A stretch of 40,736 nucleotides of DNA. It comes from a virus. Made by a program: the position numbers and the translations under genes. Below, in pieces: positions 1,258-23,248 of the stretch. The notes under the pieces were generated by a model, which searched no databases, was not told where the DNA came from, and saw only the letters and a program-made list of their open reading frames with translations. The stretch lies in the UHGV virus genome UHGV-2023338; one strand, given 5' to 3'. Position 1 is the stretch's first letter. Every line of letters begins with the position of its first letter.

Positions 1258-1758
1258 TCACAGGTTAATGGTGCCCCGCTTTTTCAGTGCGTCATACTGC
1301 TGCTCACAGGACTCACCTGCAACCCTATATCGCTCAGCTTCTTCTGCTGTTGCGACGTAAGCTCGGTTGCTTTCTTCAAGCATGTCGGCGAGCACACTGA
1401 TGACCTTGCTGGCTGGCGTGCCAGTGGGGAAAGTTCCGGTATAGTGTTCGGCGATTCGCTTGATCTTGTCAAGTTCTGACTGCAGGCGGCCAGAAGAGGC
1501 AGCAGCAAAATCAGCATCAGCCCGCGCAGACTCAATACGGGATAGCGCATCACGTTCAATTTGTGTTTTCTCCTTATCTCGTTGTGCCCGGGCCTTATCA
1601 TCAGCCTGTTTCTGATCTGACTGCGCCTGCGCGTACCCGGCGTCATACTGCCGGTCACCATGGATATTCCAGGCAACAACGCAACTGATAACCAACGCAG
1701 CAAGCATCACGACAATAAGCAACTGTTTCCAGTATGCTTTCACGAATACCCAGATCAT
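1258..1758 (-). CDS. Rz-like i-spanin (inner-membrane spanin subunit)
   Basis: N-terminal TM helix followed by charged coiled-coil periplasmic domain; directly downstream of endolysin with ATGA overlap; contains embedded lipoprotein ORF. Confidence 0.6.
1284..1550 (-). CDS. Rz1-like o-spanin (outer-membrane lipoprotein) embedded in alternate frame of Rz
   Basis: Alternate-frame ORF entirely inside Rz; signal peptide [23 protein letters not shown] with lipobox LAAC, Pro/Ser-rich mature part; start chosen at internal Met of the 139-aa track ORF. Confidence 0.45.
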   Translation of the reverse strand: MRYPVLSLRGLMLILLLPLLAACSQNLTRSSESPNTIPELSPLARQPARSSVCSPTCLKKATELTSQQQKKLSDIGLQVSPVSSSMTH

Positions 1759-2381
1759 AAAAGCACCTTACTGGCGGTGATATACCGCGCGCGCCGGTCA
1801 TCGATGCCGTTCTGCCCACCATTAATGATCTGCGTGACGCGCACCATATCGCCGGTGTACTTCATACAGCCCTTGGTGGCGAAGAACCACGCCGCGCTGC
1901 GGGCCGCATATTCGTCCTGCGTCAACAGCTCAGGATTCTCCAGCAGGTCCACTTTTAGACCGTTTCCGCAGTCACGATAGTTATTCAAACCGGTAATCTG
2001 GATAAGCCCGCGCCCACGGTAAAACCAGCCGTCAGTCGGCCCGTTGTTCCCCATGCGCTTGCTATACACCAGATTGGCGATCGCACGCTGGCGCTCCAGC
2101 GGTAACGATGGCTCACCAGCACGACGGCCCAGCGCATTGGCCTGGCCCTGAGTGAGGCGCCCGGAACGGACGAATCCCGCCAGCCCGGTCACGCTGTAGT
2201 TGAAGTTCTCCTGCAGCCGGGTGAAGCCTCCAGACTCATGCCCGACCTGAGCAATAAACATTGCCTGATCTTCTGGTTTGCTGATACCAAACTCTTTCAT
2301 CGCAGAAGTTATATGCGAGAACCAGCGTGCGGCCAGCGCCTCGCTAATACCAGCAGCTCGCTGGAATTGTTTAATCTCCAT
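1755..2381 (-). CDS. Endolysin, glycoside hydrolase family 19 (chitinase-like) type
   Basis: Motifs [12 protein letters not shown] and [11 protein letters not shown] resemble GH19 catalytic core; sits between holin and spanin genes. Confidence 0.8.
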
Positions 2382-2679
2382 GTTTAGACCTCGTTATTTT
2401 GAAAATCTGAACGACGTTACCGCGAGTTTTAAGAACCGCAGCAAGCATGACAGCATTGATAATGACCTCAGATAAATCCACAGCCATTGGCGTGCGTAAC
2501 CAGATTGCATAGACGACACGAACAGGAATACTGGCCGCAGCAACAATAAGGAAATAAGCAAGCCACCCTCCCCACCTTCGATGTTGTGAACCGTTACGCC
2601 GGAATGTGACAACACGAATTGCTATGCCAGTACAAATAAGTGCATTGGTGATAAGCAAAACAAGCTCATTAGTTACCAT
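2371..2679 (-). CDS. Holin (three predicted TM segments)
   Basis: 102-aa protein with three hydrophobic helices and charged C-terminus, immediately upstream of endolysin (overlapping). Confidence 0.55.
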
Positions 2680-3079
2680 CGCCTTTTCTCCCCGGAATTA
2701 ACTCGCGTGGATTATCGGAACGGTGATAGAGCCAGATGCCAATTCGAACTGCAACGATTGCTGACACGAATGCACCAGCAGAGAAAACAATCCCTTTCTC
2801 GAAAGAGTCCTGCGTGATGGTAGGGATCAGGCTGGCTACGCCGATAAGGATGGATGCAGTTGGTTTGTAGAAGAGAAGGCCGCAGAGAAAGCTGAGCATC
2901 GACAGGAGAACCCGGCGGCGGATCGGGTATTCGACAGCCGAGGTAACAAAGATTACCGCGCCTGCCAAAGACCCCAACGCCACTTCTGGCGGGACACCAG
3001 CGATTACCGCAGCGAGCGAACCCATACTAAGCCACTGATTTAAAGACTCACTTGTTAGCCCGGCTGACATAATGACCAC
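2669..3079 (-). CDS. Holin-like multi-TM membrane protein (holin/antiholin partner candidate)
   Basis: 136-aa hydrophobic protein with 3-4 TM segments, first gene of lysis cassette, overlaps next gene. Confidence 0.5.
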   Translation of the reverse strand: MVIMSAGLTSESLNQWLSMGSLAAVIAGVPPEVALGSLAGAVIFVTSAVEYPIRRRVLLSMLSFLCGLLFYKPTASILIGVASLIPTITQDSFEKGIVFSAGAFVSAIVAVRIGIWLYHRSDNPRELIPGRKGDGN

Positions 3080-3160
3080 CGTTTACTGTGCATAAAGAAC
3101 CTCCTTAGTTGGTTCTCATATCATACACAATAAACCATATGTGTTTTAATTTGGTAACAA

Positions 3161-3210: not shown

Positions 3211-5955
3211 TTAACCTTTAGAAAAAACAGACAGTAACGGAAGTGTAAAAGTCGACACACCAGTATTCATCATGCAGGTTTTACCACCTGAGTATCCAGA
3301 TATGGTTTGCGAAACTGGACTTCCTGTTGTTGGGAAAATGGTGATTTCATCCCCCCCCTTCAATACTCTAACTTTGCCTGTAACATCAACCGATGAACTT
3401 GAAACAGACGTGAGAGATCCATTGGTCATTGTATAAAAGTTTATAGTTCCTGTTGCTGTTCTGCTTACACCACATCCTGATTTTTGCTTCTGTTTATAGT
3501 TAAACAATACCAGCAGGCCAACAGGCATTGACTCAAGCTCAACTGCTGTAGACTGGTAGGTCTTACTGCCGTTTCTCATGTCAGGAGCCTCATCATCTGG
3601 ATCAGAAAAATTATACCCAAGAGTTAAATCATTAACCGTGGCATTATTCCCTGTTATTCCTTTGACTTGATTAACACTTAACGGTATGTAATTAAACCCT
3701 GCAAAAAGCGGTGTTAACTTTTCTCTAAATAAAAGGCCTGGTGGGTATACTAACGAAGGTGTACCATCATATGTCACTGAGATAATATTAAGTCCCTTTT
3801 TAAGGGTTCCAATGCACGTTGTTTGTTTGCCTGTAAATGATGTTAGCCCATTGCTGGCAACTTTACCTGATAGATAAGAAGAGTTCCTGATGTCATTGAG
3901 AATGACATTGAACTGGTTAACACGATCTGATGAAGTATAAGTTGGGTTATATGGCTCAAATAATGTTACAGAGATATCGCTTGTATCACTCCATACAAAA
4001 TACCGACAAATAACATTTTCATTTGAAGGCGTAATCCTTCCCCATCCACCAAGTGCATCAAGATAATCACCTCCACTTAATATCGAAATTGATGGGTAGT
4101 ATCTGGTATTTGAAGGGTATCCAATACCAATAAATGAAAGTTGCGTAGTAGGGATTAGGTTCTTATTTTTTACAGCTGTATAAACGCGCTCTTTTAATAC
4201 CTCTTTTGCAGCATAAGCACCGATGTATGCATGTCCTATCGTTGATGGATGGCTCTGGTCAAAGACAGTACCGCCGTCACGTTTGGCAACATCAGATATA
4301 GAGTACGCGCCTATATCTGCATAAGCGTCAGTCGTGGCAATGGACAAATCCAAAAACTCGACCTTTGGGAAAAGGCGTTCGATACGCTTCTTAATGGCTG
4401 ACTCCAGGAAAGCCTTTGGCGCATCGTTATTGTTTACAGTAACAAAGCATATCGGACAACCATATCCCCATGATTTTCTAATCAACTTTTCAAACTCATG
4501 AAAATACGCTTCAAATCCTATTGTTGGAAGTATTCCATTGTCATTAAAACCAAGGCTTATAAAAAGAACATCAGGAGCTTTTTTTCCATACGCAGCATTC
4601 TGGAAAAATCCATAGTCGAAGTTTTCATAACCCCAACCTGTCGCAAGTGACTTGCCAGACGATCCGCAGTTATATGCTTTAAAAATATTATCCGTGCTGT
4701 CGGATAGCATATTGAGGCAATCAGTAAAAATTCTGAACCATGAATGCTTACCGCCATTTAAATTATGATTGTAGTTGGTAGAGTTAAGATTTCCATCGCT
4801 ACCAGTCGGGTTCGGGGTCCATCCTGAACTATAGGCTCCATCCGTTATAGAATCACCAATGATACCTACATGGCAATCTTCTACAGTTGATGGGTAACCC
4901 TGCTTATTTGCAAATTTAGCAATTGTTCCAAGAGCAGTAAAATCAGGGCCATTGTTAGATAGCCCAACATCAAAAACATGCTCATTACCCCATTTGTCTC
5001 TTGTGAGAATTTTACCTTCTCCAAGAAATTTAGTCACATCATCTGACGGTAAAAAATTACACCTGATGGTTACATCTTTTGGGATGTAAATCTGACCAGG
5101 GAAAGCATAAATTGCACTTCTGTTGTCAGTTGTCGTGTTAATAACGACATTTGGAACATAAAATATTGACGTTGCGTCAGTTCTATATTGTCCGTTAACA
5201 AGCTCAGATCTGAGAACCGCATCCCCAACACCTCTCCAAGCGCCAGGACCAACACCACCAGTAGTGGTAGGAGTTGATCCTGGAGGAACTACTTTGGGCA
5301 GTGGCCCGTCCCATCTGTAGTATTCGCCGTTGCTTTCCCAGAGAAGAACATCGTTAAGATAGATGATGGTATTACCCAACTCAAAAGATTTCTTCGTGTT
5401 ATAGCCATACAATCCATTTTCTAAGGTTTCAATAATGGTGCTAAGTATGGTACTAAATTTTGCATAAAGATCATCAGTATATTTTTTTGTAGCAGCATCT
5501 TGGGGAAGAGATGGATCACGAAGATTTCTAATATAATTTGAAAGCGCGTCATAAAAAATTGCTACGTCATTTGGCTTTCTTAAAGCCAACTTATCATTTC
5601 TTAATGATTGTTGAATGAGCATAGTAAGTTTATCAAACGCATCCTCATGTACCTCAGCGAAGAACTTACCCTGATTACGTAAATCCGTTTCCTGAGTAGC
5701 TGGTAGTTCTCGTGATATAGATATCTGATGACCGTTAGCCAACGCCTTCGAGAGAATTACATTACCGCCGTTATATCCTCCAGCCCCGGTAACTGTGTAA
5801 TCAGTATCAAGAGCCAGCACAGCGATATTTTCGTCAAGGTCAACCACCTGTACTACCAGATCAGATTTATTGAAAACCCTAAAGGTGTACGGAAATGATG
5901 TCGTAACGCCGTTACCTGTGTATTCGTTGTGGTCAACTTCGGTTGAGACCGTCAT
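3211..5955 (-). CDS. Tail fibre/tailspike with central SGNH (GDSL-type) hydrolase motif; candidate receptor-deacetylating esterase
   Basis: 914 aa; conserved phage tail-fibre N-terminal anchor (YTGNGVTTSFPYTF); HVGIIGDSITDG matches GDS(L) block I of SGNH esterases; AT-rich relative to neighbours; last virion gene before lysis genes. Confidence 0.8.
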   Translation of the reverse strand: MTVSTEVDHNEYTGNGVTTSFPYTFRVFNKSDLVVQVVDLDENIAVLALDTDYTVTGAGGYNGGNVILSKALANGHQISISRELPATQETDLRNQGKFFAEVHEDAFDKLTMLIQQSLRNDKLALRKPNDVAIFYDALSNYIRNLRDPSLPQDAATKKYTDDLYAKFSTILSTIIETLENGLYGYNTKKSFELGNTIIYLNDVLLWESNGEYYRWDGPLPKVVPPGSTPTTTGGVGPGAWRGVGDAVLRSELVNGQYRTDATSIFYVPNVVINTTTDNRSAIYAFPGQIYIPKDVTIRCNFLPSDDVTKFLGEGKILTRDKWGNEHVFDVGLSNNGPDFTALGTIAKFANKQGYPSTVEDCHVGIIGDSITDGAYSSGWTPNPTGSDGNLNSTNYNHNLNGGKHSWFRIFTDCLNMLSDSTDNIFKAYNCGSSGKSLATGWGYENFDYGFFQNAAYGKKAPDVLFISLGFNDNGILPTIGFEAYFHEFEKLIRKSWGYGCPICFVTVNNNDAPKAFLESAIKKRIERLFPKVEFLDLSIATTDAYADIGAYSISDVAKRDGGTVFDQSHPSTIGHAYIGAYAAKEVLKERVYTAVKNKNLIPTTQLSFIGIGYPSNTRYYPSISILSGGDYLDALGGWGRITPSNENVICRYFVWSDTSDISVTLFEPYNPTYTSSDRVNQFNVILNDIRNSSYLSGKVASNGLTSFTGKQTTCIGTLKKGLNIISVTYDGTPSLVYPPGLLFREKLTPLFAGFNYIPLSVNQVKGITGNNATVNDLTLGYNFSDPDDEAPDMRNGSKTYQSTAVELESMPVGLLVLFNYKQKQKSGCGVSRTATGTINFYTMTNGSLTSVSSSSVDVTGKVRVLKGGDEITIFPTTGSPVSQTISGYSGGKTCMMNTGVSTFTLPLLSVFSKG

Positions 5956-6059
5956 GTTAAATCTCCAGATAGTCGCAGCACCCGTTGCGCCGCATATCTG
6001 GTTATTCTATTACCAGAAAAACCATATATGGATATATAGCTCATGAATACGAACAGATA

Positions 6060-6074
6060 TTACCTTTCAGGTGA
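6060..6074. promoter_or_regulatory. Operator-like palindrome TTACCTTTCAGGTGA (14/15 match to TTACC-N5-GGTAA)
   Basis: Read directly from sequence; about 40 bp upstream of LexA box. Confidence 0.35.
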
Positions 6075-6111
6075 TTCGCAAAACGTGCTGGATAGCAAAC
6101 AAATTATTTGC

Positions 6112-6130
6112 TACTGTATATTTATACAGT
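6112..6130 (+). promoter_or_regulatory. LexA (SOS) box
   Basis: TACTGTATATTTATACAGT = CTGT-N8-ACAG with AT-rich spacer, near-identical to E. coli LexA consensus TACTGTATATATATACAGTA; 21 bp upstream of ATG at 6151; -35-like TTGCTA at 6108-6113. Confidence 0.7.
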
Positions 6131-6150
6131 TATTGCTTGGAGAAGATAAG

Positions 6151-6408
6151 ATGCAGCAGTATCACTATCCACTGGAAGACGGATTTACCGAAAGGATTCA
6201 CACGCCGGGAGGCGTCAGGTCACTGGTGGAGGGATCGCACTTGATGAAATTACTCCGGGCTCTCGATAAGGATGGATTTAATGTCGATGGCCCACTTGCC
6301 GAACTGACTGCACTGATTAACTACGTCACCAGCTCACAGATGTCTATGCAGGATCTGCAAACACATCTCGACTATTGTGCCGAACAATTACGAAAACAAA
6401 TCAGGTAA
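6151..6408 (+). CDS. Hypothetical 85-aa protein, SOS-box-associated moron (candidate antirepressor)
   Basis: Internal Met of track ORF 6043-6408 preceded by GGAG RBS; only plus-strand gene inside minus-strand virion operon; function inferred from context only. Confidence 0.45.
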   Translation: MQQYHYPLEDGFTERIHTPGGVRSLVEGSHLMKLLRALDKDGFNVDGPLAELTALINYVTSSQMSMQDLQTHLDYCAEQLRKQIR

Positions 6409-6431
6409 ATTTAAGGGCCGCGAAAGCGGCC

Positions 6432-6445
6432 TGTGACATGTCACA
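6432..6445. repeat. Perfect 14-bp palindrome TGTGACATGTCACA (copy 1 of 3)
   Basis: Directly read; immediately preceded by hairpin GGGCCGC-GAAA-GCGGCC (6415-6431). Confidence 0.8.
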
Positions 6446-6451
6446 CTCAAG

Positions 6452-6592
6452 CTATGACAAACCTATGTACCCTGCTACACCAGATAATATCAAAACAACT
6501 GCTACAGCAAATTCACCGTCTTCAATGATACATTTACGATTCATAACGCCAAGGGCAACAAGCACAAATACAACAAGAATAAAAGCAATCAT
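6452..6592 (-). CDS. Small hydrophobic ORF (46 aa), possible membrane peptide
   Basis: Hand translation MIAFILVVFVLVALGVMNRKCIIEDGEFAVAVVLILSGVAGYIGLS; AAGGA RBS 6 nt upstream; not in track (under 60 aa); could be spurious. Confidence 0.25.
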   Translation of the reverse strand: MIAFILVVFVLVALGVMNRKCIIEDGEFAVAVVLILSGVAGYIGLS

Positions 6593-6601
6593 TTCTCATC
6601 C

Positions 6602-9076
6602 TTATTGCGGAGTGACATCCTGTGGTCGCCACCAGTATGTCTGGTTAAACTCTTTCTTCGAACGTTGCTCCATTTTACGCAAATAGCCTGGTGAAAAATA
6701 CTCCTGCATCTGGTTAAAGATCATGTGATCAAGAGCTGCCTTCAAGTACCAGAGATTCGCACCTGGCATCAGCCCTTTCCCAAGTTTCACCAGATCACCA
6801 CCAGTCTGCTCGTTCTTCCCTTCCACAGCATTTAATGGTATGCCCTGAGCTATCTTCACTACGTCATCAACCAGGCCAGCTACCGGGCCAAGCATCGACG
6901 CCAGCGCGCCGCTTCCGTATCTAGTGTGATCTGACAATAAAAAGTCACCGTAAAGGCCAAGACCACCACCTTTCAGTAGAGCACCAAGCCAAAATTTAGC
7001 AGCATCTTCTCCTGTCATCTCGCGAGGATTACGACCAGACGCAAGGTCGTTAAGTTGCTGCGACAAAGCGCCAAGAATGGTCGTACTAGCAATAAACGTC
7101 GCAATATATGCCGCACGCCCACCAGCAGACGGCATACCCATAGCGCGTGACCAGTGACGCATAACCACCGAGATAGGGAACGATTTAAACAGGAAAACAC
7201 TTCTCGTTAATTCACCTTTCCATGTTCCACGCTGAATACCAGAACCGGTTATCAGTTGCTCACGTGCTCCCGGTGTAATAACAGCCATATCAACTTCTTC
7301 AGTTACGGCACCGAGCAGTTTACGCATTGCCTCAAATTTCACGCGTTCAGGCTCACCAAGATGTTTAACTGCTGAATCAGGGATACGCATAATGCTTTCC
7401 GGTGTCAGCATCGTATTATTACCGTTCCCCCAGTCCTCCTGTTGCGCCAGCTTCCATACGCTCCAGTCTGTGTCAGTAATCCCTTTGCTTTTCAGAATAC
7501 GAAAATCAGAGTCATCGAGGCTACGAAGGTCTGGTGTCCGTGACACTACTTCTCCCAGGCTTCCCATCATGGTTACGCCATAGGCGCGCTTGTGCGCATC
7601 TGACCATGCTGTAAGCCCACTGGCACGCATTACCGCCGTTGCCGCCCAACGAGACACTGACGGCCCCATATTATCCATCGCCCAGCGGTTAACGCTGCCA
7701 AGTAGAGATTCCATCGCCAGACCAGCGCGTCGCGCCCGCGCAAGCTCAGTACGGTTCGTTGGGTCCATAGCTTCAAGCTGGTTGCGGAATAACTGGTTCA
7801 TTGGAAGGTTGGTCACCTTCGCAGACAGATACATGGTTCCAAGATCAGAGAACGATGACAGCAACGCGGATCCGAGTCTGCTGGCAACCAGCCAGTTGCG
7901 GATATTGTCAGACCATTGCGCGATGTGCGGATTCGCTACAGGCTGTGTCTTTCCGGAAATAAAGTTGTACAGATTCTCTGTGTTGTTCGCCAGCCGCTCG
8001 ACTTTACCGGTTTTACTCGGGTTAGCTGTTGCCGTTTCTGCCTTAACCTGATCAAGAAGTGAGCGGAAAACATGATCGGGGTTTGGACCATATGTTTCCA
8101 CCAGAGAAATATCTTTACTGATACCTTCCAGGTGACCGACCATGATTTCCCATAGAGAGCGATCGCCATAAAGTTGTTGATATTGGAGATAGGAATCTGC
8201 ATCTTTGAAATGTATCTGTCGTGATGCATTACCACGGTTAGCACGTGCGCCGGAAATTCGCATTCCGGTATCAGTAAGCTTATTCAGCCCACCAGTAGCG
8301 ATCGTGTTATAAGCCTCTCCAAGAAATGCAGACAACTCGGCATCGTTCATCAGTTGTCCATCGGATCGGGTATAATATTTGCGATCCAGCTTACCTATAA
8401 CATCGCTAACCCACTTATCCTTTGATACCGCCCCAACCTTTTCCATAGAATGATGTTGAGGGATCCCCCAGTTTTCGAGATAGCCAATGTCCCCACCAGC
8501 ATCATTAAACCGGCGGCGCAGCAGCTCTGTAACTTCTCTCCACGCCTTAGCACCTTTTCTTGCTTTAGCATTGCCAGTATTTTGCCCCCGCATTTCATAT
8601 ACCAGGTCACGTACGCCCGCTTCATCTTCAAACAGACCAAAAAAGCGAGGATCAACTGCTTCAAATGCCTCCTGCAATTGACTCAATGCATAATCACGAG
8701 TGGCTTTTGTTCTGGATTCAACAGAGAGGAAATTCGATTTACCGTCTGCATTAAAAGCAATAGTACGGTTAAGAGCGCCAAGTTTCCCATCAGCCCCTTG
8801 ATAGCTATTGATAAATTTATCCAATCTCTGACGTGCGGCTATAGTGAGAGCCACACGACGTTTCTTTAATGCCGCTTCTCGCTGTAATTCTTCAGATGCC
8901 AATTGTGCTGCACGATACAACCGTTCTGATTCGGAAAGTTGTCGCCACGACATCGGGTCATCACGAGCAATGGAGCGCATATTTCGATAAATGCGGTCTT
9001 CAATGTTCTGTATTTCTCGCGCCGTTAACGTGCGCTGCGCCGCCTGCTGGACCGCTTGTATACATTCCTGTCTCAT
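6602..9076 (-). CDS. Large internal virion/ejection protein (T7 gp16-position)
   Basis: 824 aa, last of a run of large structural genes before tail fibre; position-based assignment. Confidence 0.6.
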   Translation of the reverse strand: MRQECIQAVQQAAQRTLTAREIQNIEDRIYRNMRSIARDDPMSWRQLSESERLYRAAQLASEELQREAALKKRRVALTIAARQRLDKFINSYQGADGKLGALNRTIAFNADGKSNFLSVESRTKATRDYALSQLQEAFEAVDPRFFGLFEDEAGVRDLVYEMRGQNTGNAKARKGAKAWREVTELLRRRFNDAGGDIGYLENWGIPQHHSMEKVGAVSKDKWVSDVIGKLDRKYYTRSDGQLMNDAELSAFLGEAYNTIATGGLNKLTDTGMRISGARANRGNASRQIHFKDADSYLQYQQLYGDRSLWEIMVGHLEGISKDISLVETYGPNPDHVFRSLLDQVKAETATANPSKTGKVERLANNTENLYNFISGKTQPVANPHIAQWSDNIRNWLVASRLGSALLSSFSDLGTMYLSAKVTNLPMNQLFRNQLEAMDPTNRTELARARRAGLAMESLLGSVNRWAMDNMGPSVSRWAATAVMRASGLTAWSDAHKRAYGVTMMGSLGEVVSRTPDLRSLDDSDFRILKSKGITDTDWSVWKLAQQEDWGNGNNTMLTPESIMRIPDSAVKHLGEPERVKFEAMRKLLGAVTEEVDMAVITPGAREQLITGSGIQRGTWKGELTRSVFLFKSFPISVVMRHWSRAMGMPSAGGRAAYIATFIASTTILGALSQQLNDLASGRNPREMTGEDAAKFWLGALLKGGGLGLYGDFLLSDHTRYGSGALASMLGPVAGLVDDVVKIAQGIPLNAVEGKNEQTGGDLVKLGKGLMPGANLWYLKAALDHMIFNQMQEYFSPGYLRKMEQRSKKEFNQTYWWRPQDVTPQ

Positions 9077-9081
9077 TTAAT

Positions 9082-10884
9082 TTAACCTCTCAAGAAACAC
9101 GCCACAGCAACATCAAACAGGCTGGAATCCTGTATTGCCTGCTCACTTTCCCTGTTCGCTTCATCCAGTACTTCACGCGCACTGCGCGATTGTGGATTAC
9201 CATCATCATCCAGCACGGTGATTATCATGTCCGGAGATTCAAGCAGCGAGTCTTCAGCTATACGCAGATCAATATCTCCTGCCGGATCTGCCATCATTTT
9301 TTGTTCTGTCTGTTGCAATATCTTACCGGGCTCAAAAGGAGCTACTTCGTCTGGCGTCCTGACCTCTGCTGTTTTATAGAATGAAACAGCCTGAGCATTA
9401 AGTTCACTTTCTGCCTGCTGTCGTCGTGCCAGTTCTGCTCGAGCTTCAAAAAACTGACCGCCAGGCTCATGCGGTGCCAACGCGTTACGGGAAAATTCCA
9501 GGCGCTCTTGTGCCTGCCGGATTCGTTGGTCAATATCGCGAAGTCTGACCTGTTTATCTGATCGAGCACGAGACAAAGCTTTACCGCTACCGTTTGGCTC
9601 TTCTGCAAGAATTTGTGCGCGCTGTTCAGTGAGATTTTCAATAATTCGTTGGCTATTAGCGATTTCAGACTGGTAAACCTGTCTATCGCCACGCGGCAAA
9701 AGCTGCGCGGCCTGTTCTTCAAGCAACCGATTTTCTATAGCGCGCGCCGTTACTCCATCATCTACAGATGACAGAGCCTCATTAACTGCCTGAGACAGCA
9801 GACTCTTGCGCCCAGGAATTTCACTGAAAGATGCAGACTCAACAATGCTGGCAACGTCTACAGGTCTCCCCTCGCTAACATCAGACATAGCTTTTCTCAG
9901 AGCCTGAATGTGAGAATTGCGCGAAAGCACGTTGATCGGCACGCCGGGCGCAATATCAATTTCAGCATGATGAGCGGCATTCGCCGCCAGTGCAGCATCA
10001 ACATCAACTGGTGAAAAATTTGCTGCGTTTGTAGACTCGCCGCGAGAGTTAATAAATCTGCCGACACCACCAAACGCCACCCCAAGAACAGCATCAATAG
10101 CAATTGCCTGTCGATCCAACACATCATACTGGTTAGCCATTTCGCTATAGCCACCATCACGAAGCGTTTTTGCAGTAAGCCCACGCTGTGCCATACCGAA
10201 CGCAATATTTGTACCTGCGGCATAGGCAATATCTGGCGTTGCACGTACTGCTGTTGCTGCGGCGCGTCGCACTGAACTCTCACCCGTCCGCGCAAGCTGA
10301 GCCGCCACACCTTCCGCCAGCGCACCACCAGCACGTAACCCGAGGCTCATAGGGATCAGTGTTCCGGCACCAGCAGTAATGCCCTGCACTAATCCCGCTT
10401 CCTGCGCCGTCCTGAAATCAACACCCTGTGCTGTCAGCCGTTCAAACTCAGAAAAACCCTGTAGCGAAGTTACCGCCGCTGCACCTCCGACAGGACCACC
10501 GAGCGTTGTACCGACAACAGCCTGCCCGCCCATATCGAACAACCCATAAAGAACCTGCCCGGCGGTTCCGGTTGTCGCGGCATCAGGCGTCAGCTGCTTA
10601 ACCTGCTGCTCTGCTAGTTTTCTCTGCTCGGCAATGTATGAAACTGAAGTGTCATTGAGCGAGGTGTTTTCGTTAACAAACTGAGCAATCGGGGATACGA
10701 TTTTATCCATCCCTGCCCAGAGCAACTGATCTGGCTTTGCCACCAGCCCGGAGTACAAACCAGACAATGCCGCTCCTACAGCATTGTCGAAAAAACCAAC
10801 ATCGCTGTTAAAACCAGCTGGATTTGATGCTGCTTCGTCAAGCTGCTGATTCTGGTTTACTGGATTAAGGCCAAAGTAACTCAT
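9082..10884 (-). CDS. Internal virion protein, Gly/Ala-rich
   Basis: 600 aa; Gly/Ala-rich low-complexity N-terminal half; within structural operon. Confidence 0.55.
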   Translation of the reverse strand: MSYFGLNPVNQNQQLDEAASNPAGFNSDVGFFDNAVGAALSGLYSGLVAKPDQLLWAGMDKIVSPIAQFVNENTSLNDTSVSYIAEQRKLAEQQVKQLTPDAATTGTAGQVLYGLFDMGGQAVVGTTLGGPVGGAAAVTSLQGFSEFERLTAQGVDFRTAQEAGLVQGITAGAGTLIPMSLGLRAGGALAEGVAAQLARTGESSVRRAAATAVRATPDIAYAAGTNIAFGMAQRGLTAKTLRDGGYSEMANQYDVLDRQAIAIDAVLGVAFGGVGRFINSRGESTNAANFSPVDVDAALAANAAHHAEIDIAPGVPINVLSRNSHIQALRKAMSDVSEGRPVDVASIVESASFSEIPGRKSLLSQAVNEALSSVDDGVTARAIENRLLEEQAAQLLPRGDRQVYQSEIANSQRIIENLTEQRAQILAEEPNGSGKALSRARSDKQVRLRDIDQRIRQAQERLEFSRNALAPHEPGGQFFEARAELARRQQAESELNAQAVSFYKTAEVRTPDEVAPFEPGKILQQTEQKMMADPAGDIDLRIAEDSLLESPDMIITVLDDDGNPQSRSAREVLDEANRESEQAIQDSSLFDVAVACFLRG

Positions 10885-13394
10885 TGCGGAATATCTCCGG
10901 AGAATCTCTGACGCTTCTGTGTCAGATCAAGAACAACGGGAGAACCATCATCTTTTAGCAGATAACCAGTACCAAGTTTCACCAGGTACTGACTATCGCC
11001 GTAACTTTGCAAACCATACTGACCAGGCGGTGTTTTTATCCCTGTGCCAACAACTTGTTCATTCCAAGCCTGATTAACCTGCTTATCGAATTGCTCTGCA
11101 GACATTCCCCACGGCAAAAGAACATTCCCCATTCCGTTATAGTCATGCACGCCACCTGTAGCTACGTTAACAGCCTGTTTCCAGATATCATTGTCAATTT
11201 CGCCTGATACCACGCCTTTTTTCGCCATCACACCAGCGTAATAGTCCTTTGCGATCTCGTATGCCATTGATGCCCCCTGAGCATCACCAGCAAATGCATC
11301 CTTCACCATGTCAGAAAACTCAAGGCGAAGATCAGCATCTTTAGGCATCGGAATACCTTTCGCGTCATCAGTACCTTTACGAGCCGCCGCGCCAGCAAGA
11401 ATTGTCTGCGCAGCGGTTTCAGGAGACACGGAAACATCCGGATTAAACCAGTTTTTTTCTGCCAAAATACCACCTGGCTTATCCATCAGTATCCCGGCAA
11501 CGGCAGCAGATGGAGCGTTGGCACTGATCTGCTGTAGTGCTGACATATACACCTGCCCACCACCAGTGCTCTGCCTGATGGTATCGAGATATGCTGCCTG
11601 TTGGGAAACGGGCGCATCACGAAAGAAAACACCGATCTGATTGGCCTCGTCTTTGGAAAAGAACGTCAGTGGAGTGCCATATGACTTAGCAAGGTCACTG
11701 ACCTGAGCAGCACGCAAGGCAACGCTCTGTCCAAAGTTATCCTTATTGCTCATGTCGATAGGCTTTGCCTGTCCGGCGGCAAGAGAGAACTGTACAGGAT
11801 CAGCCTGTCGCTGCTTTATCACCTGACTTGCAGCCGACACAACGTTGTCATAAAGAGCGGCTCGTGCCGCATAACCCTCCCCTGTCTCACCAGTATCCGG
11901 GCGTAATTGCTCAACATATGCTGTAATGCTGCTTGTCGGCATGTTGCGGAAAGAGCCTATATACTGTCCGGCGATTTGCGTATTTCTGAACTCGGTATAT
12001 CGCAGGTTTCCTTCTCTGACTCCATAAGCTGCAATAAAATCAGCCTCACCAGGTGGGTTAGGAAATTCAACGCCACGCATATACGCAGCTGTCGCATCGC
12101 GAACCTGGCTGTCAATCATCGTTTTATATTCAGCCTGCTGCTGCCGACGCAGTTGATCCGCCTGTCGCATAAAACTTGCCTGCGCCTCAGAAGATGCCGC
12201 ATCGAATGCTGCATTACCGGTATAGCGTTTGGTGTTGGTTGGAATTGTTGATAAACCAAGTGCTGCACTGACACCAGCAGTTAACTGCTGATCACTGTAT
12301 GGCTGGCTACCGTTCTCATGATGGATAATGGCTGCACAAAGCGCCTTCAGGGTATCAGGATTAGATGCATCGAGAGGCTCATCAGCAGAAACGCCAAGTT
12401 GTTCGCACACTGCTTTGATATACGACATAGTGTCATTTTTATCAGTAGGCGGTGCCCAGCGATTAATTATCTCGCTGACGGTATCGATACCCTGCCGCTG
12501 ATACGACATCAGGTTACGCCCTAATGCACGAATCCCGTGCTCAGGTGTTTCGAATTTAGCAAATCGACCATCATCACCGGTCTGGCCTACCCACGGATTA
12601 GTTTTGCTGTATTCGAGATTTCCTGGGTTATTGTTGCGTATGCCACGGGCACGCTCGGAAGAGTCACTATCTGCTACAGCACGGCGAGCTCCAGCAGCAA
12701 TATCACTTAACTCGCCATTACTTTGGATGAATGCGGTCGCATTGTTTGCCGACCACTGGGACAATGCGGCATCAGCAACCTTCTCTTTAAACTCGATTTT
12801 CTTGGCCTGTATTTGCTCGTCGCTCCAGCCATGCGCAATGCCATAATCCTCAATTTGCTGGAAAGTTTGCTTATTAGCCAATACGTATGCGGCGTTGTCG
12901 CCATACAATGCTGCGGCATTTTTACCATTGTTCAGCAGCGTCGCCTGAAACTGGCCTTCTTCGTAGGCATTTATTTGCCCTATCTCGTGCCGCCCGGCCT
13001 GCATAGTGAACTGAATACGCTGCTGCTGCGCCTGCTGCATGAAAGCATTACGAGCCTGTTCATCCGGCAGCGACATAGCCAGTTGTTCGACCTGAGCATC
13101 AAACTGCTGCGTATACTCATGGCCTTTTCCAATAGCATTTTTCCCTTTCAGGTTAAGCAATCCTGTTTCAGGATTATTCAGCAGATCGCTGCTTATCTGA
13201 CTGAGGTTAAGAGATGCCTCCTGAGCCAGAGCGATATTGGCACGCTGTTTTGCCTGCCCCAAAACATCAATTGCCTCTGTCCCTGCCCGAACAAAAGCAT
13301 CACCAATACCTTGCTGAGAAAACGTCTGCAAGCCTGCTGACTGAACTCCACGACTCTCAACCTGACGTCCGGATACTGTTGGTACGACTGGCAT
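10881..13394 (-). CDS. Internal virion (core) protein (T7 gp15-position)
   Basis: Start trimmed to internal Met (MPVVPTVSGRQ) that abuts upstream gene; 837 aa; contains conserved-looking block GIRNNNPGNLEY. Confidence 0.6.
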   Translation of the reverse strand: MPVVPTVSGRQVESRGVQSAGLQTFSQQGIGDAFVRAGTEAIDVLGQAKQRANIALAQEASLNLSQISSDLLNNPETGLLNLKGKNAIGKGHEYTQQFDAQVEQLAMSLPDEQARNAFMQQAQQQRIQFTMQAGRHEIGQINAYEEGQFQATLLNNGKNAAALYGDNAAYVLANKQTFQQIEDYGIAHGWSDEQIQAKKIEFKEKVADAALSQWSANNATAFIQSNGELSDIAAGARRAVADSDSSERARGIRNNNPGNLEYSKTNPWVGQTGDDGRFAKFETPEHGIRALGRNLMSYQRQGIDTVSEIINRWAPPTDKNDTMSYIKAVCEQLGVSADEPLDASNPDTLKALCAAIIHHENGSQPYSDQQLTAGVSAALGLSTIPTNTKRYTGNAAFDAASSEAQASFMRQADQLRRQQQAEYKTMIDSQVRDATAAYMRGVEFPNPPGEADFIAAYGVREGNLRYTEFRNTQIAGQYIGSFRNMPTSSITAYVEQLRPDTGETGEGYAARAALYDNVVSAASQVIKQRQADPVQFSLAAGQAKPIDMSNKDNFGQSVALRAAQVSDLAKSYGTPLTFFSKDEANQIGVFFRDAPVSQQAAYLDTIRQSTGGGQVYMSALQQISANAPSAAVAGILMDKPGGILAEKNWFNPDVSVSPETAAQTILAGAAARKGTDDAKGIPMPKDADLRLEFSDMVKDAFAGDAQGASMAYEIAKDYYAGVMAKKGVVSGEIDNDIWKQAVNVATGGVHDYNGMGNVLLPWGMSAEQFDKQVNQAWNEQVVGTGIKTPPGQYGLQSYGDSQYLVKLGTGYLLKDDGSPVVLDLTQKRQRFSGDIPQ

Positions 13395-13939
13395 TATAAT
13401 CCTCCGGGTAATCTGGTTCCTGCTGCTGCCACGATTGGCGCAGGAGTGCTTTGAGTAAACGGACTCCACGTCCCACCAAACATCTGGTACGCACCGTATG
13501 CCTTCAGAGGCGCAGTGAGCAATGTTGTTGCTGCTCCCACATTCCCCTGTTTACGGGCTGAACTGGCTTCTGCTTTATAGTTGGCAGCCTGAACCTGATA
13601 ACCGTAAGCCTCGCGTTGCGCGTTATTCACCGTCGTCAGCGAATCAAGAGCGCCAAACTGAGCAGTGTCACCAAATATATCCAGCGCATTACCGGTAGAT
13701 AAATCAGCGCCGGTAGCCCCCATTGTCGCCGCCTGTGTACCAAGCCGCTGTCGAGTCTCTCTGCGCCGTTGCTCAGCTTCAGCGTTACCCCTGTTTATTG
13801 CATCATTTGCCTGAGCTGTGGCTATATCTGCGTTCGCTTCTGCAGCCGTCGAGGCATACTTTCCCTGTTGGTACTGGGTGTATGCCTGAATGCCACTCAT
13901 GGCGAGCATTGCGCCACCAGCAATAACCGGATCGCACAT
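13394..13939 (-). CDS. Internal virion protein (T7 gp14-position)
   Basis: 181 aa, Ala/Gln-rich; position between nozzle-like gene and core proteins. Confidence 0.45.
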   Translation of the reverse strand: MCDPVIAGGAMLAMSGIQAYTQYQQGKYASTAAEANADIATAQANDAINRGNAEAEQRRRETRQRLGTQAATMGATGADLSTGNALDIFGDTAQFGALDSLTTVNNAQREAYGYQVQAANYKAEASSARKQGNVGAATTLLTAPLKAYGAYQMFGGTWSPFTQSTPAPIVAAAGTRLPGGL

Positions 13940-14403
13940 TATTTTCTCTCCATGTGAAATCTGTGGAAATTAAGACCAAGTGCACCATAAGGCGCGGCTT
14001 CTTCAAGCCTGAATCCAAGCCAGTGCAGCCATGCTTTGGCAACATGGTTTCGCTCATCGACATAGTTTTCCAGGCGCGGATAAACTGCCAGCATCTGCTG
14101 CAATACAGGGCGGCAGTGGCGCAGAAATGTCTTCTGATATTTTTCAATACGGCTGGTCCCGACCAGCCAGGGCGTACCATTGCCACCGATCATTGACGCC
14201 GGAGATACGCCAAACATGGTTGCCAGTTCTCCGTTCGCGAACCCTGACCAGGCCATAGTCGCAGTGCGCAGACCAACACGCAGCGCATCTTCGGTAGTCA
14301 TCAGCGATACCGCATACAGTTCGTCAATATCAGCCTGACGAACATCCGGCAAAATCATCTGAAGATGCTCTTCGGTAGCGGGAATAATTTGAACGTCGAT
14401 CAT
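13939..14403 (-). CDS. Putative internal virion protein (T7 gp13-position)
   Basis: 154 aa; tightly packed (shared boundary nucleotides) in structural operon. Confidence 0.4.
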   Translation of the reverse strand: MIDVQIIPATEEHLQMILPDVRQADIDELYAVSLMTTEDALRVGLRTATMAWSGFANGELATMFGVSPASMIGGNGTPWLVGTSRIEKYQKTFLRHCRPVLQQMLAVYPRLENYVDERNHVAKAWLHWLGFRLEEAAPYGALGLNFHRFHMERK

Positions 14404-16874
14404 CAGAATCCCCCAACAGTAAGGCGAGGAATAACGGCAAGAACAGACAGCGGCAACGGGTCAAGCTGACGGATTTTTACACGTCCGTTTTTGCCCCAGT
14501 TACTGTCAAGTTTCACTTCTACTTTTCCGGTAGCATCATCAACAGGATCATCGTAGAACTCGAATTCACGCTGTGGATATTCGTACCATTTACCGCCGGG
14601 CGTAGTCGCCCAGATGCCGCGACTGGCATTCACAACCAGAGTAACGGACGGGTTCACCTGTTTTTTGTCCAGCAGCGTTTCCTGTCCGTTAATGTTGATA
14701 TCCAGTGTTTCGAATTCAGCAGTTATTGGCAGGCCGATGTGCACTACAGCCCCCGGAGATTCCAGCGTGACGGCACCTCCGGAAACCACTTTCTGTGGTT
14801 CCACGTTCGCATCAGAGAGAATGTTTACGGTCTGGCCTTCAAGATGAGACAGGCCTCCAAATGTCCGGCGCGCCATCTGCCAGTTCGTGGTGGCCACATT
14901 CCTGAGGGATGGCGGGACGTTCCTGTTGGCACGAACCACTACAGCGGTATTGCTGGTTACAGAAATAATGTCGCAACGTAATTCTTTTGACACTTCATCG
15001 CCAGTATCAGGAACAGTTCCGGTATAAGGGAACTGTAGTTGCGCGCCGACATCACTACTGGTGAAGTACGCACCACCAGAAACACTGATTGTATATTCCG
15101 CACGGTAATCCCATTCACCAGAACCACCAGTGATGGTCATCGTTCTGTCAGACGTATTTCTTCCATCATAGCTAAGGCCAGAATCAACAAAGAAAGCATC
15201 TTCATCGCTGGTAAATAAACGGCTGGACAGTCTCTCGATGTATCTCACTGTTTTCCCGTTAACGGTTCGGTTAACGACGAAATACACCGCATCTTCATTG
15301 CCTTCGCTGATACTGCATGTGCTTTCATATTTTCCGGTACTGGATTGTGGTGCCCATGCAAAAACCTGCTGATCACGCAAATAGGTCATCACCAGTAATT
15401 TACCGTCATCACGAATGCAGAAGGCGCTGGAGTAAGGGACAATCGAGAAGCACCAGTCAACAATGCTGTGCTTCTGAAAAAGATGATTGGCAAGGATGGT
15501 CAGGTCGTTCCCCTGATAGCCGTCAACATCGAATGAGTAGGCCAGATCACGGACAACACTGCCTTTCTCCTGGACGAACAGAGCAATATTCGCCACGGCA
15601 ATTGGTGGGACATTGCTCGAGCCATTTGATCCCTGAGAGCTGAATGCAAATGATGATGGGGTAAGCACTTTGTTCTGGTCGCCAGTGATGACGTACTCAC
15701 CTCCGGAAGTCAGCGCCACCAGCGAACCAACATCAATCAGGTGACGGATCTCATTAACCTGACGCCCGGCATAGGTGTAGATAATTCTGTCGTCATCCTG
15801 CGTAGGATTGCTTTTGCCAAAATCCTTATAATCCCCGGTACGGCTGGCCCAGATAGTCTGAGGGAACGCAGTCGATGCGGCGAAGTAAAGGCGTTGTTGA
15901 TAATAAACAACAGTGCCAGGATAACCGTTAATACTGTTCCAGGCATATTTAGCCCATTTATAGCTGGCATTATCCTCGCCAACTACCTGCGAAGGGATAT
16001 AGGAAATCACCTCGGCAGTTGCAGTAGTTCCATTTGCAGCAGAGATACGGGCAATGCCAAAACCACTGTGCAGATACTCCCACTCAATGCCGGTATCATC
16101 ATCACCGGATCCGCCCCAGCCATCCCATGATGTGCCTTCTGTATGCGAAGGGCGCAAAGTGCCTGTTTTGCCTGCTGTAACGGCGCGATAGTAGTTACTG
16201 TCTGCACGGCGAATATCGCCAATCGACGTACTCTTACTGGTTTCCCATACCGGCACAGAATCCACTGCAGGCTGTTCCAGATAGAACAATTTGCCTACCT
16301 GCTCCGCGCCAAAAATTGAGGCGCTTGCCGTTAACGTAATTGTCCCGGTGCTGGCGCTGGCATAAACCGTCACTGACTCGTCAATATTGATATCTTCAAA
16401 TGGCCCGTTCTTCGTTACCACATCAACCAGTTGCCAGTTGTCATGCGCATAGCGGCGCAACTCTTTCGGCGGGTATGCCGGGTGAACCAGCGTAAGCACG
16501 TCTGCGCTTTGCGTGAATTTAATTCGGAACAGATCGGCTTCAGTATATGGCGTGGCAATTTCATAAATAACATTGCTGCTGTTCAGCACCAACGCACCAT
16601 CTTTGATAACGCGCATGTACTGGTGTCCGAACTCCAGAGCGTAGGTCTGAACCGTCGAGAACTGGAACGGGATCAGGCGGCATTTCCGATTTGGGTATTT
16701 GGCGGCACCGACAAAACGCGTACCAGGTCGATTCTCAACGCCGCCATACTGCCGCACGATAAAGTTATCGCACTTGCGCAATGCCACCTGGTACTTCGCC
16801 ATGTCGATACGACCGTACAACGACGGTCCAATCTCACCACCGGCAAAGCTGGGCTGGATCCAACTGATAGCCAT
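14403..16874 (-). CDS. Tail tubular protein B / nozzle-like protein
   Basis: 823 aa immediately after adaptor-like gene, matching size/position of podovirus gp12-type nozzle. Confidence 0.55.
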   Translation of the reverse strand: MAISWIQPSFAGGEIGPSLYGRIDMAKYQVALRKCDNFIVRQYGGVENRPGTRFVGAAKYPNRKCRLIPFQFSTVQTYALEFGHQYMRVIKDGALVLNSSNVIYEIATPYTEADLFRIKFTQSADVLTLVHPAYPPKELRRYAHDNWQLVDVVTKNGPFEDINIDESVTVYASASTGTITLTASASIFGAEQVGKLFYLEQPAVDSVPVWETSKSTSIGDIRRADSNYYRAVTAGKTGTLRPSHTEGTSWDGWGGSGDDDTGIEWEYLHSGFGIARISAANGTTATAEVISYIPSQVVGEDNASYKWAKYAWNSINGYPGTVVYYQQRLYFAASTAFPQTIWASRTGDYKDFGKSNPTQDDDRIIYTYAGRQVNEIRHLIDVGSLVALTSGGEYVITGDQNKVLTPSSFAFSSQGSNGSSNVPPIAVANIALFVQEKGSVVRDLAYSFDVDGYQGNDLTILANHLFQKHSIVDWCFSIVPYSSAFCIRDDGKLLVMTYLRDQQVFAWAPQSSTGKYESTCSISEGNEDAVYFVVNRTVNGKTVRYIERLSSRLFTSDEDAFFVDSGLSYDGRNTSDRTMTITGGSGEWDYRAEYTISVSGGAYFTSSDVGAQLQFPYTGTVPDTGDEVSKELRCDIISVTSNTAVVVRANRNVPPSLRNVATTNWQMARRTFGGLSHLEGQTVNILSDANVEPQKVVSGGAVTLESPGAVVHIGLPITAEFETLDININGQETLLDKKQVNPSVTLVVNASRGIWATTPGGKWYEYPQREFEFYDDPVDDATGKVEVKLDSNWGKNGRVKIRQLDPLPLSVLAVIPRLTVGGF

Positions 16875-17479
16875 CAGGACAACCTCGCAATGGTAAACTC
16901 GTCAACCGGTGGCTGTGGTTCCTGTGATTCATTCTGGCTATGCGAGCCAGCACTAAGAATCACGCGATTGTACATATTGAGGGCAAACGTACCGAGGTCT
17001 GCATTCCCAGTCAGCGCCATGTTAATAGCTGCCGCAAGACGCCAGGCCAACGCCTCCATAAAAATGGCATCAAACATGTTCACATCTGAAACGCGAGAGA
17101 CATACTTGAGCCATGCCTGCGGCTGGTCTGTGTAGATCAACTTTCCTGTTCCGTTGGTGTCTGCACCAACTTCGTACTGAACGCGCATTGCTGCTGTTGG
17201 ATTGCGTACACCAGGAAGCATAATTTCAGTAATGCGCAGACAATCGGACGGGTACTGGTACGCATATTCCCAGTCAGGCGGTGGATTGCTCGTATCTGCA
17301 AGCGCCACGCGTTTGGTAGCAAAGTTCCAGTCAAAATCAGAAAGCACAGCATCACGGCAGGCCTCAAAGTGCAGCGAACATTCCCCCGCTTCCTTGCTGG
17401 CTTCCGTCAGGCTGTTAATGCTGCGGCTGTTGCCAATATTGGACAGCGCACGATTGCAGATCTCTACTACAGAGGCCAT
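16874..17479 (-). CDS. Tail tubular protein A / adaptor-like protein
   Basis: 201 aa; N-terminal region resembles T7 gp11-type adaptor by recollection; position upstream of nozzle-like gene. Confidence 0.5.
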   Translation of the reverse strand: MASVVEICNRALSNIGNSRSINSLTEASKEAGECSLHFEACRDAVLSDFDWNFATKRVALADTSNPPPDWEYAYQYPSDCLRITEIMLPGVRNPTAAMRVQYEVGADTNGTGKLIYTDQPQAWLKYVSRVSDVNMFDAIFMEALAWRLAAAINMALTGNADLGTFALNMYNRVILSAGSHSQNESQEPQPPVDEFTIARLS

Positions 17480-17808
17480 TACTCACCCCCATTGCCGTAC
17501 AGAGTTTCAGCCGCTGATTTTTCTACATCACCGGAAACAGGAGCGATTGCCATATCAGTGATCTGCAGATCGGCGCTGCGATTAACGCCATCGTCAGTTT
17601 CTCTGGCAGACAGGCCTCGAATAACAGCCTTTGCAGTTATCATCACTTCTGTTCCGACGCCCTGAGGTTGCGCCTTCAGCTTATTCAATGTGTCGTTATT
17701 CAGCGTGATGCACAGCCCCCATGGGTATTCATCGCGAGTTCTGGTTTCTCCGCTCTCATCCTGGTAGCTGTCAGTGCCGGTTTTGAGGTTTACGAGTTCC
17801 ATATACAC
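17479..17808 (-). CDS. Hypothetical virion-associated protein
   Basis: 109-aa ORF in structural operon, contiguous with neighbours. Confidence 0.45.
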   Translation of the reverse strand: MYMELVNLKTGTDSYQDESGETRTRDEYPWGLCITLNNDTLNKLKAQPQGVGTEVMITAKAVIRGLSARETDDGVNRSADLQITDMAIAPVSGDVEKSAAETLYGNGGE

Positions 17809-17852
17809 TCCTGCAATAAAGGGGCCGAAGCCCCTTGTCTGATTCGCGAGGC

Positions 17853-18197
17853 TTACACGCCCAGTTCTTTACGCTTATCTGCGATCTTCTCGCGGAGCGT
17901 TTCAGCTTTGGCGTTATGGTGTGGCTTCTCGTTAAAGAGCAATTCGTACTCTTCACGGAGCTTATCCAGTTCACCATCATCTGACACATCGTTGATGATT
18001 TTGGTGCTGGTTGCTGCCATTGACACCTTTCCTGCAACTTTTGCTTTTGCCTGTCTGGCTGCATCGTTAACAGGTTCCAGTGCGCTACCAGGCTCACCTT
18101 CGTATTCGATTTCTGCCCCCTCCGGCCACAGAGTGTTATGGATATGAGAGAGGCGCAGAACGCGGTATCTTGGTTTCTCACCTGACATCGATATCAC
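17853..18197 (-). CDS. Hypothetical protein (structural operon)
   Basis: 114-aa charged ORF between decoration-like and adaptor-like genes. Confidence 0.45.
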   Translation of the reverse strand: MISMSGEKPRYRVLRLSHIHNTLWPEGAEIEYEGEPGSALEPVNDAARQAKAKVAGKVSMAATSTKIINDVSDDGELDKLREEYELLFNEKPHHNAKAETLREKIADKRKELGV

Positions 18198-18198
18198 C

Positions 18199-18636: not shown

Positions 18637-18687
18637 CTTCTTTCTCCATTAGTGGGTCTGTTACGACCCACAGGTTAATAACAGGCG

Positions 18688-19680: not shown

Positions 19681-19688
19681 TTCCTCTC

Positions 19689-22580: not shown

Positions 22581-22670
22581 ATCAATGACTCCGTACGCAA
22601 TTAAATTATTACCAATTTAACCATATATGATTTATTTATCGTAGGTAGTTGACATTTAACGCACAAATTA

Positions 22671-23170: not shown

Positions 23171-23200
23171 ACAGCAGGACGCCATTGCGATGACTTCATG

Positions 23201-23216: not shown

Positions 23217-23248
23217 CCACGGAAGGCATAACTCATTGCTTCCAGTTT

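Follow-up and report, generated by a model that had tools for sequence, protein, structure and literature searches.

What does an isolated 85-aa open reading frame do when it reads against the virion genes of a temperate phage and has a LexA-box-like sequence in front of it? A first-pass annotation of this locus had proposed an SOS-controlled antirepressor that acts on a CI-like repressor incapable of cleaving itself. The window analyzed here is the whole 40,736-nt stretch of UHGV-2023338, a temperate E. coli podophage of the epsilon15/phiV10 type (Uetakevirus). It is collinear with phiV10 in reverse orientation, with 95–98% identity across most of its length, and the region around the ORF (5900–6650) matches the records of the Uetakevirus phages epsilon15, phiV10, SPC32H, PAS61, TL-2011b and Tyrion.

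The late genes of the window lie on the minus strand and comprise the terminase gene (24563–26709), the portal operon (22359 to 6452), at whose end a small membrane-protein gene is found (6452–6592), the tailspike gene (3211–5955) and the lysis genes (1258–3079); the integrase gene occupies 39480–40736. The ORF (6151–6408, plus strand) separates the membrane-protein gene from the tailspike gene. It had been described as the only plus-strand gene inside the virion operon, which is correct between the tailspike gene and the portal operon, both included (3211–22359), but not for the late genes overall, since a second plus-strand cassette lies between the portal and terminase genes. This cassette consists of a tRNA-Arg (23009–23085), the sole match in an Rfam search of the window, and two ORFs (23284–23661 and 23821–24561). 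The order of membrane-protein gene (minus), ORF (plus) and tailspike gene (minus) is that of SPC32H_019, ant and tsp in SPC32H, and epsilon15 likewise has a membrane-protein gene that ends the late operon, an opposite-strand ant and then the tailspike gene.

The first-pass annotation did not recognize the protein sequence, which is in fact 86% identical to a protein of solved structure. Residues 2–83 of 85 matched chain E of PDB 5D50, 'Anti-repressor protein', in a phmmer search (E=4e-46). The ORF is orthologous to the genes for Ant (about 86 aa) of Salmonella phage SPC32H, for epsilon15 gp19 and for phiV10p24, with global protein identities of 86%, 83% and 95%, respectively. In a tblastn search the identity to the SPC32H gene 'ant' (KC911856) was 87.8%, and homologs were found in 35 phage records, all of them enterobacterial; every record inspected was a Uetakevirus. 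The records of SPC32H and SPC32N annotate the homolog as 'ant: anti-repressor protein', the name that we use in the following. The reading frame of ant extends from the ATG at 6151 to the TAA at 6406–6408 and is preceded by a Shine-Dalgarno sequence GGAG (6139–6142) located 8 nt before the ATG, with GGA invariant in an alignment of nine phages. A longer ORF of 121 aa, starting from an ATG at 6043, was discarded, because the LexA box would come to lie inside it together with the Shine-Dalgarno sequence and because the crystallized protein as well as the GenBank CDS begin at the ATG equivalent to 6151. The dN/dS ratio of ant is about 0.05 against its orthologs from Salmonella and Enterobacter phages, so that it is a real protein-coding gene under purifying selection.

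Family profiles gave a mixed answer. Searches of Pfam and NCBIfam returned no family for the 85-aa protein, with neither an ANT nor a P22_AR nor a Bro-N domain in Pfam, and a weak DUF724 match under the cut-off was disregarded, but the protein belongs to phrog_450 in PHROGs (E=5e-47), a family labeled 'unknown function', in addition to matching the antirepressor of known structure. A local match to phrog_1760, 'anti-repressor' (E=1.6e-6), is limited to the last 49 positions of that family. Small phage genes under LexA control that act on the host are known, for example the dinI homologs of Gifsy (PMC3121763), and the missing Pfam or NCBIfam family would leave room for such a role. We nevertheless regard it as extremely unlikely that the ORF is an SOS-induced moron directed at the host, be it a DinI-like modulator, a toxin or similar, and not the phage's own switch, given the 86% identity to a protein that was crystallized in complex with a phage repressor and the outcome of the Pfam search, which gave no match to DinI (E≤1), the family of small SOS-induced proteins that also covers the C-terminal half of Tum, or to another domain.

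The near-consensus LexA box that had been claimed in front of the ORF is indeed found there. The sequence TACTGTATATTTATACAGT (6112–6130) is part of a full 20-mer, TACTGTATATTTATACAGTT (6112–6131), which deviates at two positions from the 20-mer consensus TACTGTATATATATACAGTA (quoted in PMC8072944) and lies 20 nt upstream of the ant ATG. When the 40.7-kb window was searched for TACTGTATATATATACAGTA with up to three mismatches, this box was the only match, and 100 shuffled sequences yielded none. The shorter pattern CTGT-N8-ACAG occurs three times in the window (0.57 expected), and only the copy at 6112 has an AT-rich spacer. We also computed the heterology index (HI) with an approximate matrix based on 20 known SOS boxes of E. 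coli; on this matrix the box scores 1.5–2.0, within the range of the strongest SOS boxes, and the next best site of the window scores 11.2. The two other CTGT-N8-ACAG copies were rejected as LexA sites, both having GC-rich spacers: the one at 23201 has an HI of 13.4 (at 23199), and the one at 18658 falls outside the six best-scoring sites (HI >13.47). The orthologous box is the only low-HI site in SPC32H, epsilon15 and phiV10 as well, which makes four genomes in all.

To this we add the conservation of the region between the tailspike gene and ant, which was aligned across nine phages (the window and eight others) and covers about 210 nt upstream of ant. The box is in register in nine of nine, at the same spacing. 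A scan of genome contigs yielded five true relatives, namely prophages of Citrobacter braakii, C. werkmanii, Candidatus Erwinia dacicola, Superficieibacter electus and Klebsiella pneumoniae, along with one false positive from a Clostridiaceae contig. In all five prophages, the distances between the upstream palindrome described below, the LexA box and the ATG are unchanged. Klebsiella and Superficieibacter lineages have a degenerate left half-site, ATGT. SPC32H and SPC32N differ at a single position in the roughly 210 nt upstream of ant, a C to A exchange in the right half-site of the box that turns TATACAGT into TATAAAGT, affects its CAG core and raises the HI from 3.8 to 7.6 on the approximate matrix. 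The SPC32N mutation reportedly causes constitutive production of Ant, and lysogeny is said not to be maintained. We take the C to A exchange in the aligned box to be this constitutive-Ant mutation of Kim & Ryu (2013).

These observations support a predicted LexA site in front of ant at 6112–6131. One could object that the palindrome is a chance AT-rich repeat or the site of another protein, with ant being controlled by the phage repressor through a site at 6060–6074 alone; a repressor-type operator does lie 37 bp upstream of the box, and the left half-site is ATGT in the Klebsiella and Superficieibacter lineages. We consider the probability that this is correct as close to negligible: chance would produce no such box, none of the four genomes has a second low-HI site, 14 loci keep the box in register, and the difference between SPC32H and SPC32N falls into its CAG core.

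The promoter that the box would control can be outlined from the same alignment. A stricter scan for sigma-70 promoters found nothing over threshold at the LexA box, so P_ant is probably weak or atypical and its hexamers are provisional. Among the candidates of a looser scan, we chose TGGATA (6089–6094) as −35 and, after a 17-bp spacer, TACTGT (6112–6117) as −10, because their bases are invariant in the nine phages ('T.CTGGA.A' and 'TG.TA'); a TG at 6109–6110, one base further upstream, would make it an extended −10. In this arrangement, all on the plus strand, the −10 hexamer would coincide with the left arm of the LexA box, and the predicted transcription start, near 6124, would lie within the box. 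The −35 element assumed previously, TTGCTA (6108–6113), is doubtful. The hexamer is not conserved (CTGTTA in SPC32H, CTGATA in epsilon15), the one 17 bp downstream is poor (TATTGC, and GTTTGC in SPC32H), and the start would fall inside the Shine-Dalgarno sequence. More likely, TTGCTA is part of the extended −10 (TG-n-TACTGT). A further −10-like hexamer, TATACA (6123–6128), which the SPC32N exchange converts to TATAAA, comes without an acceptable −35.

Between the divergent ant and tailspike genes lies the palindrome TTACCTTTCAGGTGA (6060–6074), 37 bp upstream of the LexA box, with ATTACC/GGT.A invariant in the nine-phage alignment. It corresponds to the 'operator-like' sequence noted before at a distance of 40 bp. 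That observation was real and is not explained by chance, but the palindrome is not peculiar to this locus, as it is one of a genome-wide family of 13 sites: when one mismatch is allowed, the window contains 13 matches to TTACC-N5-GGTAA, as opposed to 0.74 expected. The family presumably represents operators of the phage repressor Rep (and of Cro). One pair (33360–33374 and 33408–33422) lies between rep and a divergent cro-like gene and presumably forms the main operators; a second pair (34120–34134 and 34182–34196) is located downstream of rep and before the plus-strand early operon, and a third at 31015/31077. Further sites precede the portal operon (22671) or lie close to where the ORF for the terminase small subunit starts (26631/26649). 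In SPC32H, epsilon15 and phiV10, the motif occurs at syntenic positions, and the RefSeq record of epsilon15 annotates the palindrome upstream of gp19 as 'protein_bind: repressor, lysogeny', beside an IHF site. A conserved spacing of about 54 bp separates the center of TTACCTTTCAGGTGA (6067) from that of the LexA box. The center of TTACCTTTCAGGTGA precedes the proposed start of ant transcription by about 57 bp and a candidate tailspike start by roughly 70 bp. The putative operator could presumably serve P_ant, the tailspike promoter or both.

On the tailspike side, a late-promoter-like block, TTACC-N5-AACCATATATG, lies on the minus strand upstream of the gene (6010–6030, within an element spanning 6004–6034). 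It is repeated exactly upstream of the portal operon (22609–22629) and with three mismatches upstream of the lysis genes (3123–3143), so that it looks like a shared late-promoter element. From the looser hexamer scan and the invariant columns of the alignment, we derive a candidate tailspike promoter with −35 TCCATA (6032–6027) and −10 TAGAAT (6009–6004). On the other side of ant, 8 nt past its stop codon, the hairpin GGCCGC-GAAA-GCGGCC (6416–6431) was recognized by a terminator scan on the minus strand, where it would terminate the upstream late operon; the stem is invariant and the loop variable in six phages, and the records of epsilon15 and phiV10 annotate it as the rho-independent late-operon terminator on the late strand. 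Late transcripts thus probably end before they could read through ant in antisense, and given this stop a separate promoter would probably be required for the tailspike gene. The hairpin may also end or stabilize the ant mRNA.

The presumed target of Ant is encoded by rep (33478–34062, plus strand), a gene for a 194-aa prophage repressor of the SPC32H Rep type. Residues 1–190 matched chain A of 5D50, 'Repressor' (E=3.5e-42), and the C-terminal fragment 5D4Z_A was matched with E=3.6e-20. In Pfam, the protein has an HTH_3 domain (best stretch 106–147) and an N-terminal HTH (21–61) and no match to Peptidase_S24 at E≤1; NCBIfam gave only weak matches to HTH families. The profiles agree with the first-pass description of a CI-like protein with two HTH regions and without S24 features. 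Descriptions of SPC32H Rep (PMC9986798) list an N-terminal HTH domain for DNA binding, a middle HTH-like domain for dimerization and a C-terminal domain for tetramerization and Ant binding, and they attribute tetramerization to Phe187 and Phe190 of the C-terminal domain, which binds Ant. In the window Rep, this pair aligns with a Tyr and a Phe.

Rep of the window is 99.5% identical to phiV10p40 but shares only 42.5% of its residues with SPC32H Rep (42.7% in a second comparison); the identity is 53% for the N-terminal domain and 41% for the C-terminal part. In fact, two Rep clades with about 43% identity to each other can be distinguished, one with phiV10, Tyrion and BUCT554, the other with SPC32H, epsilon15 and Klebsiella phages, whereas Ant is 77–86% identical across them. 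In both Rep clades, the region of the recognition helix (NLVNRW) and a large part of the extreme C-terminus (I.YD...Y..LP..EK.KI) show no variation. The phage records that contain Ant (35) and those that contain Rep (36–37) are almost identical sets.

Overall, we assign a probability of about 0.9 to the reading that the ORF at 6151–6408 is the Ant of the published SPC32H Ant/Rep SOS switch and acts on a non-cleavable Rep. In a lysogen, host LexA would occupy the box at 6112–6131, which overlaps the predicted core of the ant promoter, and would keep ant silent, and the Rep tetramer, which has no autocleavage domain, would hold the lytic genes off from the TTACC-N5-GGTAA operators. Upon DNA damage, RecA would be activated, LexA would cleave itself and ant would be transcribed. 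An Ant tetramer would then bind the C-terminal domains of two Rep dimers and break up the Rep tetramer, Rep would leave its operators, and the derepression of the lytic genes would induce the prophage. For SPC32H, each of these steps is supported in the literature, which describes that Ant is produced after LexA self-cleavage and that the repressor is inhibited by protein-protein contact (PMC7380047), with Ant binding the C-terminal domain of Rep and dissociating the Rep tetramer (PMC9638917, PMC9986798). From this system we infer that LexA would bind the box of the window, that ant would be SOS-inducible and that Ant would bind the window Rep, the last point being an extrapolation because the latter shares only 42.5% of its residues with SPC32H Rep. 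The E. coli phage ZX5, which is nearly identical to the window phage in both proteins (Rep 99.5%, Ant 97.6%), is inducible by mitomycin C (PMC9782041).

The divergence of Rep gives some weight to another scenario, in which Ant of the phiV10 clade no longer acts on its Rep, induction is brought about by another factor such as a Bro-N antirepressor and Ant is linked to the SOS response in some other way. In several relatives, ant is immediately followed by a Bro-N 'anti-repressor' gene of the same orientation (phiV10 p23, ZX5 ORF4, Tyrion gp20). Its product is of another fold family than Ant (Bro-N, phrog_130), although residues 148–181 in the C-terminus of phiV10p23 resemble residues 2–32 of Ant (BLASTP 1e-6, phrog_450 7e-8). 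In the single experimental study found on an E. coli member of the clade, ZX5, overexpression of the Bro-N protein ORF4 lowered lysogeny and rep transcription; the antirepressor role was given to ORF4, and the small Ant is not mentioned (PMC9782041). Still, a search for a Bro-N type gene found none in the window, and the gene is also absent from PAS61, SPC32H and epsilon15, whereas Ant, the LexA box and Rep are all present in every relative examined. Ant is also under strong purifying selection, and the Ant-contacting C-terminal domain of Rep keeps the aromatic pair and many invariant residues in both clades. Taken together, a loss of the action of Ant on Rep appears very improbable.

The antirepressor interpretation of the first-pass annotation is thus supported, with orthologs of chains E and A of one crystallized complex on both sides of the interaction, yet it restates a published system, as Ant and Rep are homologous to the SPC32H pair; the window adds a member and no new principle. 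We take the system to be the lytic switch of Kim & Ryu (2013, J Virol) and Kim et al. (2016, PNAS), with the structures PDB 5D50 and 5D4Z. The likeness extends from the orthologous Ant, whose gene has the same orientation and the same two neighbors, the late operon and the tailspike gene, to a LexA box equally far from the ATG, the same upstream TTACC-N5-GGTAA palindrome and a homologous three-domain Rep without S24 in a phage of the same genus. Differences concern the Rep clade (that of phiV10, Tyrion and BUCT554 for the window), the host, which is E. coli for the window phage, and the LexA box, which is closer to the consensus in the window (spacer ATATTT, ATGTTT in SPC32H).

Ant has reportedly been described as a structurally distinct class of antirepressor for podophages. 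Among podophages, P22 also has an ant among its late genes, directly beside the tailspike gene. The P22 Ant of immI (mnt-arc-ant) acts on the prophage repressor by protein contact (PMC7380047), but it is a large unrelated protein under the control of Mnt and Arc and not of LexA. Tum of phage 186, AntC of N15 and GfoA/GftA of Gifsy are small antirepressors of non-cleavable repressors, and their genes are directly repressed by LexA and lie outside the immunity region (PMC3121763). With these, compared here through their Pfam and NCBIfam families alone, Ant appears to share the regulatory logic only, and no family in these searches links it to Tum, AntC or GfoA/GftA. The modes of action differ as well: Tum blocks the binding of the repressor to its operator (PMC3121763), whereas SPC32H Ant contacts the C-terminal domain of Rep and takes the tetramer apart.

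That Ant is far better conserved than Rep raises the question of whether it could act across the two Rep clades. We would propose only tentatively, as a rather unlikely extension, that Ant is a pan-genus cross-immunity inducer acting on the Reps of both clades and that ant is under double control by LexA and Rep. If this were true, one Ant (77–86% identical) would inactivate Reps of about 43% identity via the conserved C-terminal tetramerization domain, and an SOS-induced Uetakevirus prophage could induce a heteroimmune relative in the same cell. The double control would, in turn, create a positive feedback once Ant starts to remove Rep.

For annotation, the value of these findings is practical: the records of E. 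coli and its phages can adopt the name and the mechanism known for SPC32H Ant. With phrog_450 being of 'unknown function' and no Pfam or NCBIfam family available, most records call Ant hypothetical; the homologs in phiV10, TL-2011b, ZX5, PAS61 and others are named 'hypothetical protein', and among the RefSeq matches listed (12 of 534 records) no product bears an antirepressor name. The ant locus is present in 531 of 5426 complete E. coli genomes (about 10%), and by analogy with SPC32H Ant is likely to be the primary SOS switch of these common prophages.

Thirteen TTACC-N5-GGTAA palindromes occur genome-wide, spanning positions 3863-34196 of the window, and most early and late transcription units are preceded by one. 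The sites are often paired with a spacing of 48 or 62 bp; they include those at 31015-31029 and 31077-31091, at 34120-34134 and 34182-34196, at 33408-33422 and at 22671-22685. SPC32H, epsilon15 and phiV10 display the same pattern, although the repressors (Rep) are only ~43% identical across the two Rep clades. If these palindromes are Rep operators, late operons would be directly gated by Rep just like early ones, and operator specificity would be common to both clades. A further motif, TTACC-N5-AACCATATATG, is present in two exact copies, upstream of the tailspike gene (6010-6030, gene on the minus strand) and of the minus-strand portal operon (22609-22629), and in one copy with three mismatches upstream of the minus-strand lysis genes (3123-3143), compared to 0.27 expected. 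It is likely a late-promoter or activator element common to these three minus-strand late units.

Between the portal and terminase genes lies a second plus-strand cassette, comprising a tRNA-Arg with anticodon TCT (23009-23085, +), a phrog_322 ORF (23284-23661, +) and an ORF of unknown function assigned to phrog_4780 (23821-24561, +). phiV10 contains no equivalent of the segment 23742-24567, which includes the last of these ORFs. A perfect TTGACA (22650-22655) is located 17 bp ahead of the putative operator at 22671, which may therefore overlap the -10 element of the predicted promoter of the tRNA-Arg cassette. The weak LexA-like sequence TGCTGTAAACCAGTACAGCC (23199-23218), 66 bp upstream of the ORF starting at 23284, is also found in phiV10 at position 2722. 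Given its heterology index of ~13.4, a score in which low values denote good LexA sites, it is probably not functional.

In phiV10, ZX5 and Tyrion, a gene for a Bro-N 'anti-repressor' (in phiV10 this is phiV10p23, 19646-20230, minus strand) is inserted just 3' of ant, the gene of the 85-aa antirepressor Ant; the Bro-N gene is absent from the equivalent spot of the window, between 6408 and 6416. In the ZX5 study, the role of antirepressor is given to the Bro-N protein and not to the small Ant (PMC9782041). At the C-terminus of phiV10p23, residues 148-181 are similar to residues 2-32 of Ant (BLASTP 1e-6; phrog_450 7e-8), which suggests a fusion with the 5' portion of ant or a scar left by recombination with it. 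Directly adjoining the late-operon terminator hairpin is a perfect 12-bp palindrome, GTGACATGTCAC (6433-6444), that is unchanged in six phages; its flanking bases vary.

The tailspike (3211-5955, -) combines a conserved N-terminus of the epsilon15 type with a receptor-binding part similar to gp63.1 of phage G7C that includes a GDSL/SGNH esterase domain (Pfam matches: Gp63_3rd_G7C, Tail_spike_N, G7C_GBD and Lipase_GDSL_2). Its enzyme activity is probably that of an O-antigen deacetylase, not of a glycanase. Past the lysis genes, the left end of the window carries two plus-strand cargo ORFs (1-516 and 532-1071) without counterpart at that position in phiV10. One encodes a glycine-zipper/TraT-like putative outer-membrane lipoprotein and the other a DUF5384 protein. 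The family of the TraT-like ORF is labeled 'DNA methyltransferase' in PHROGs, which looks like a mislabel.
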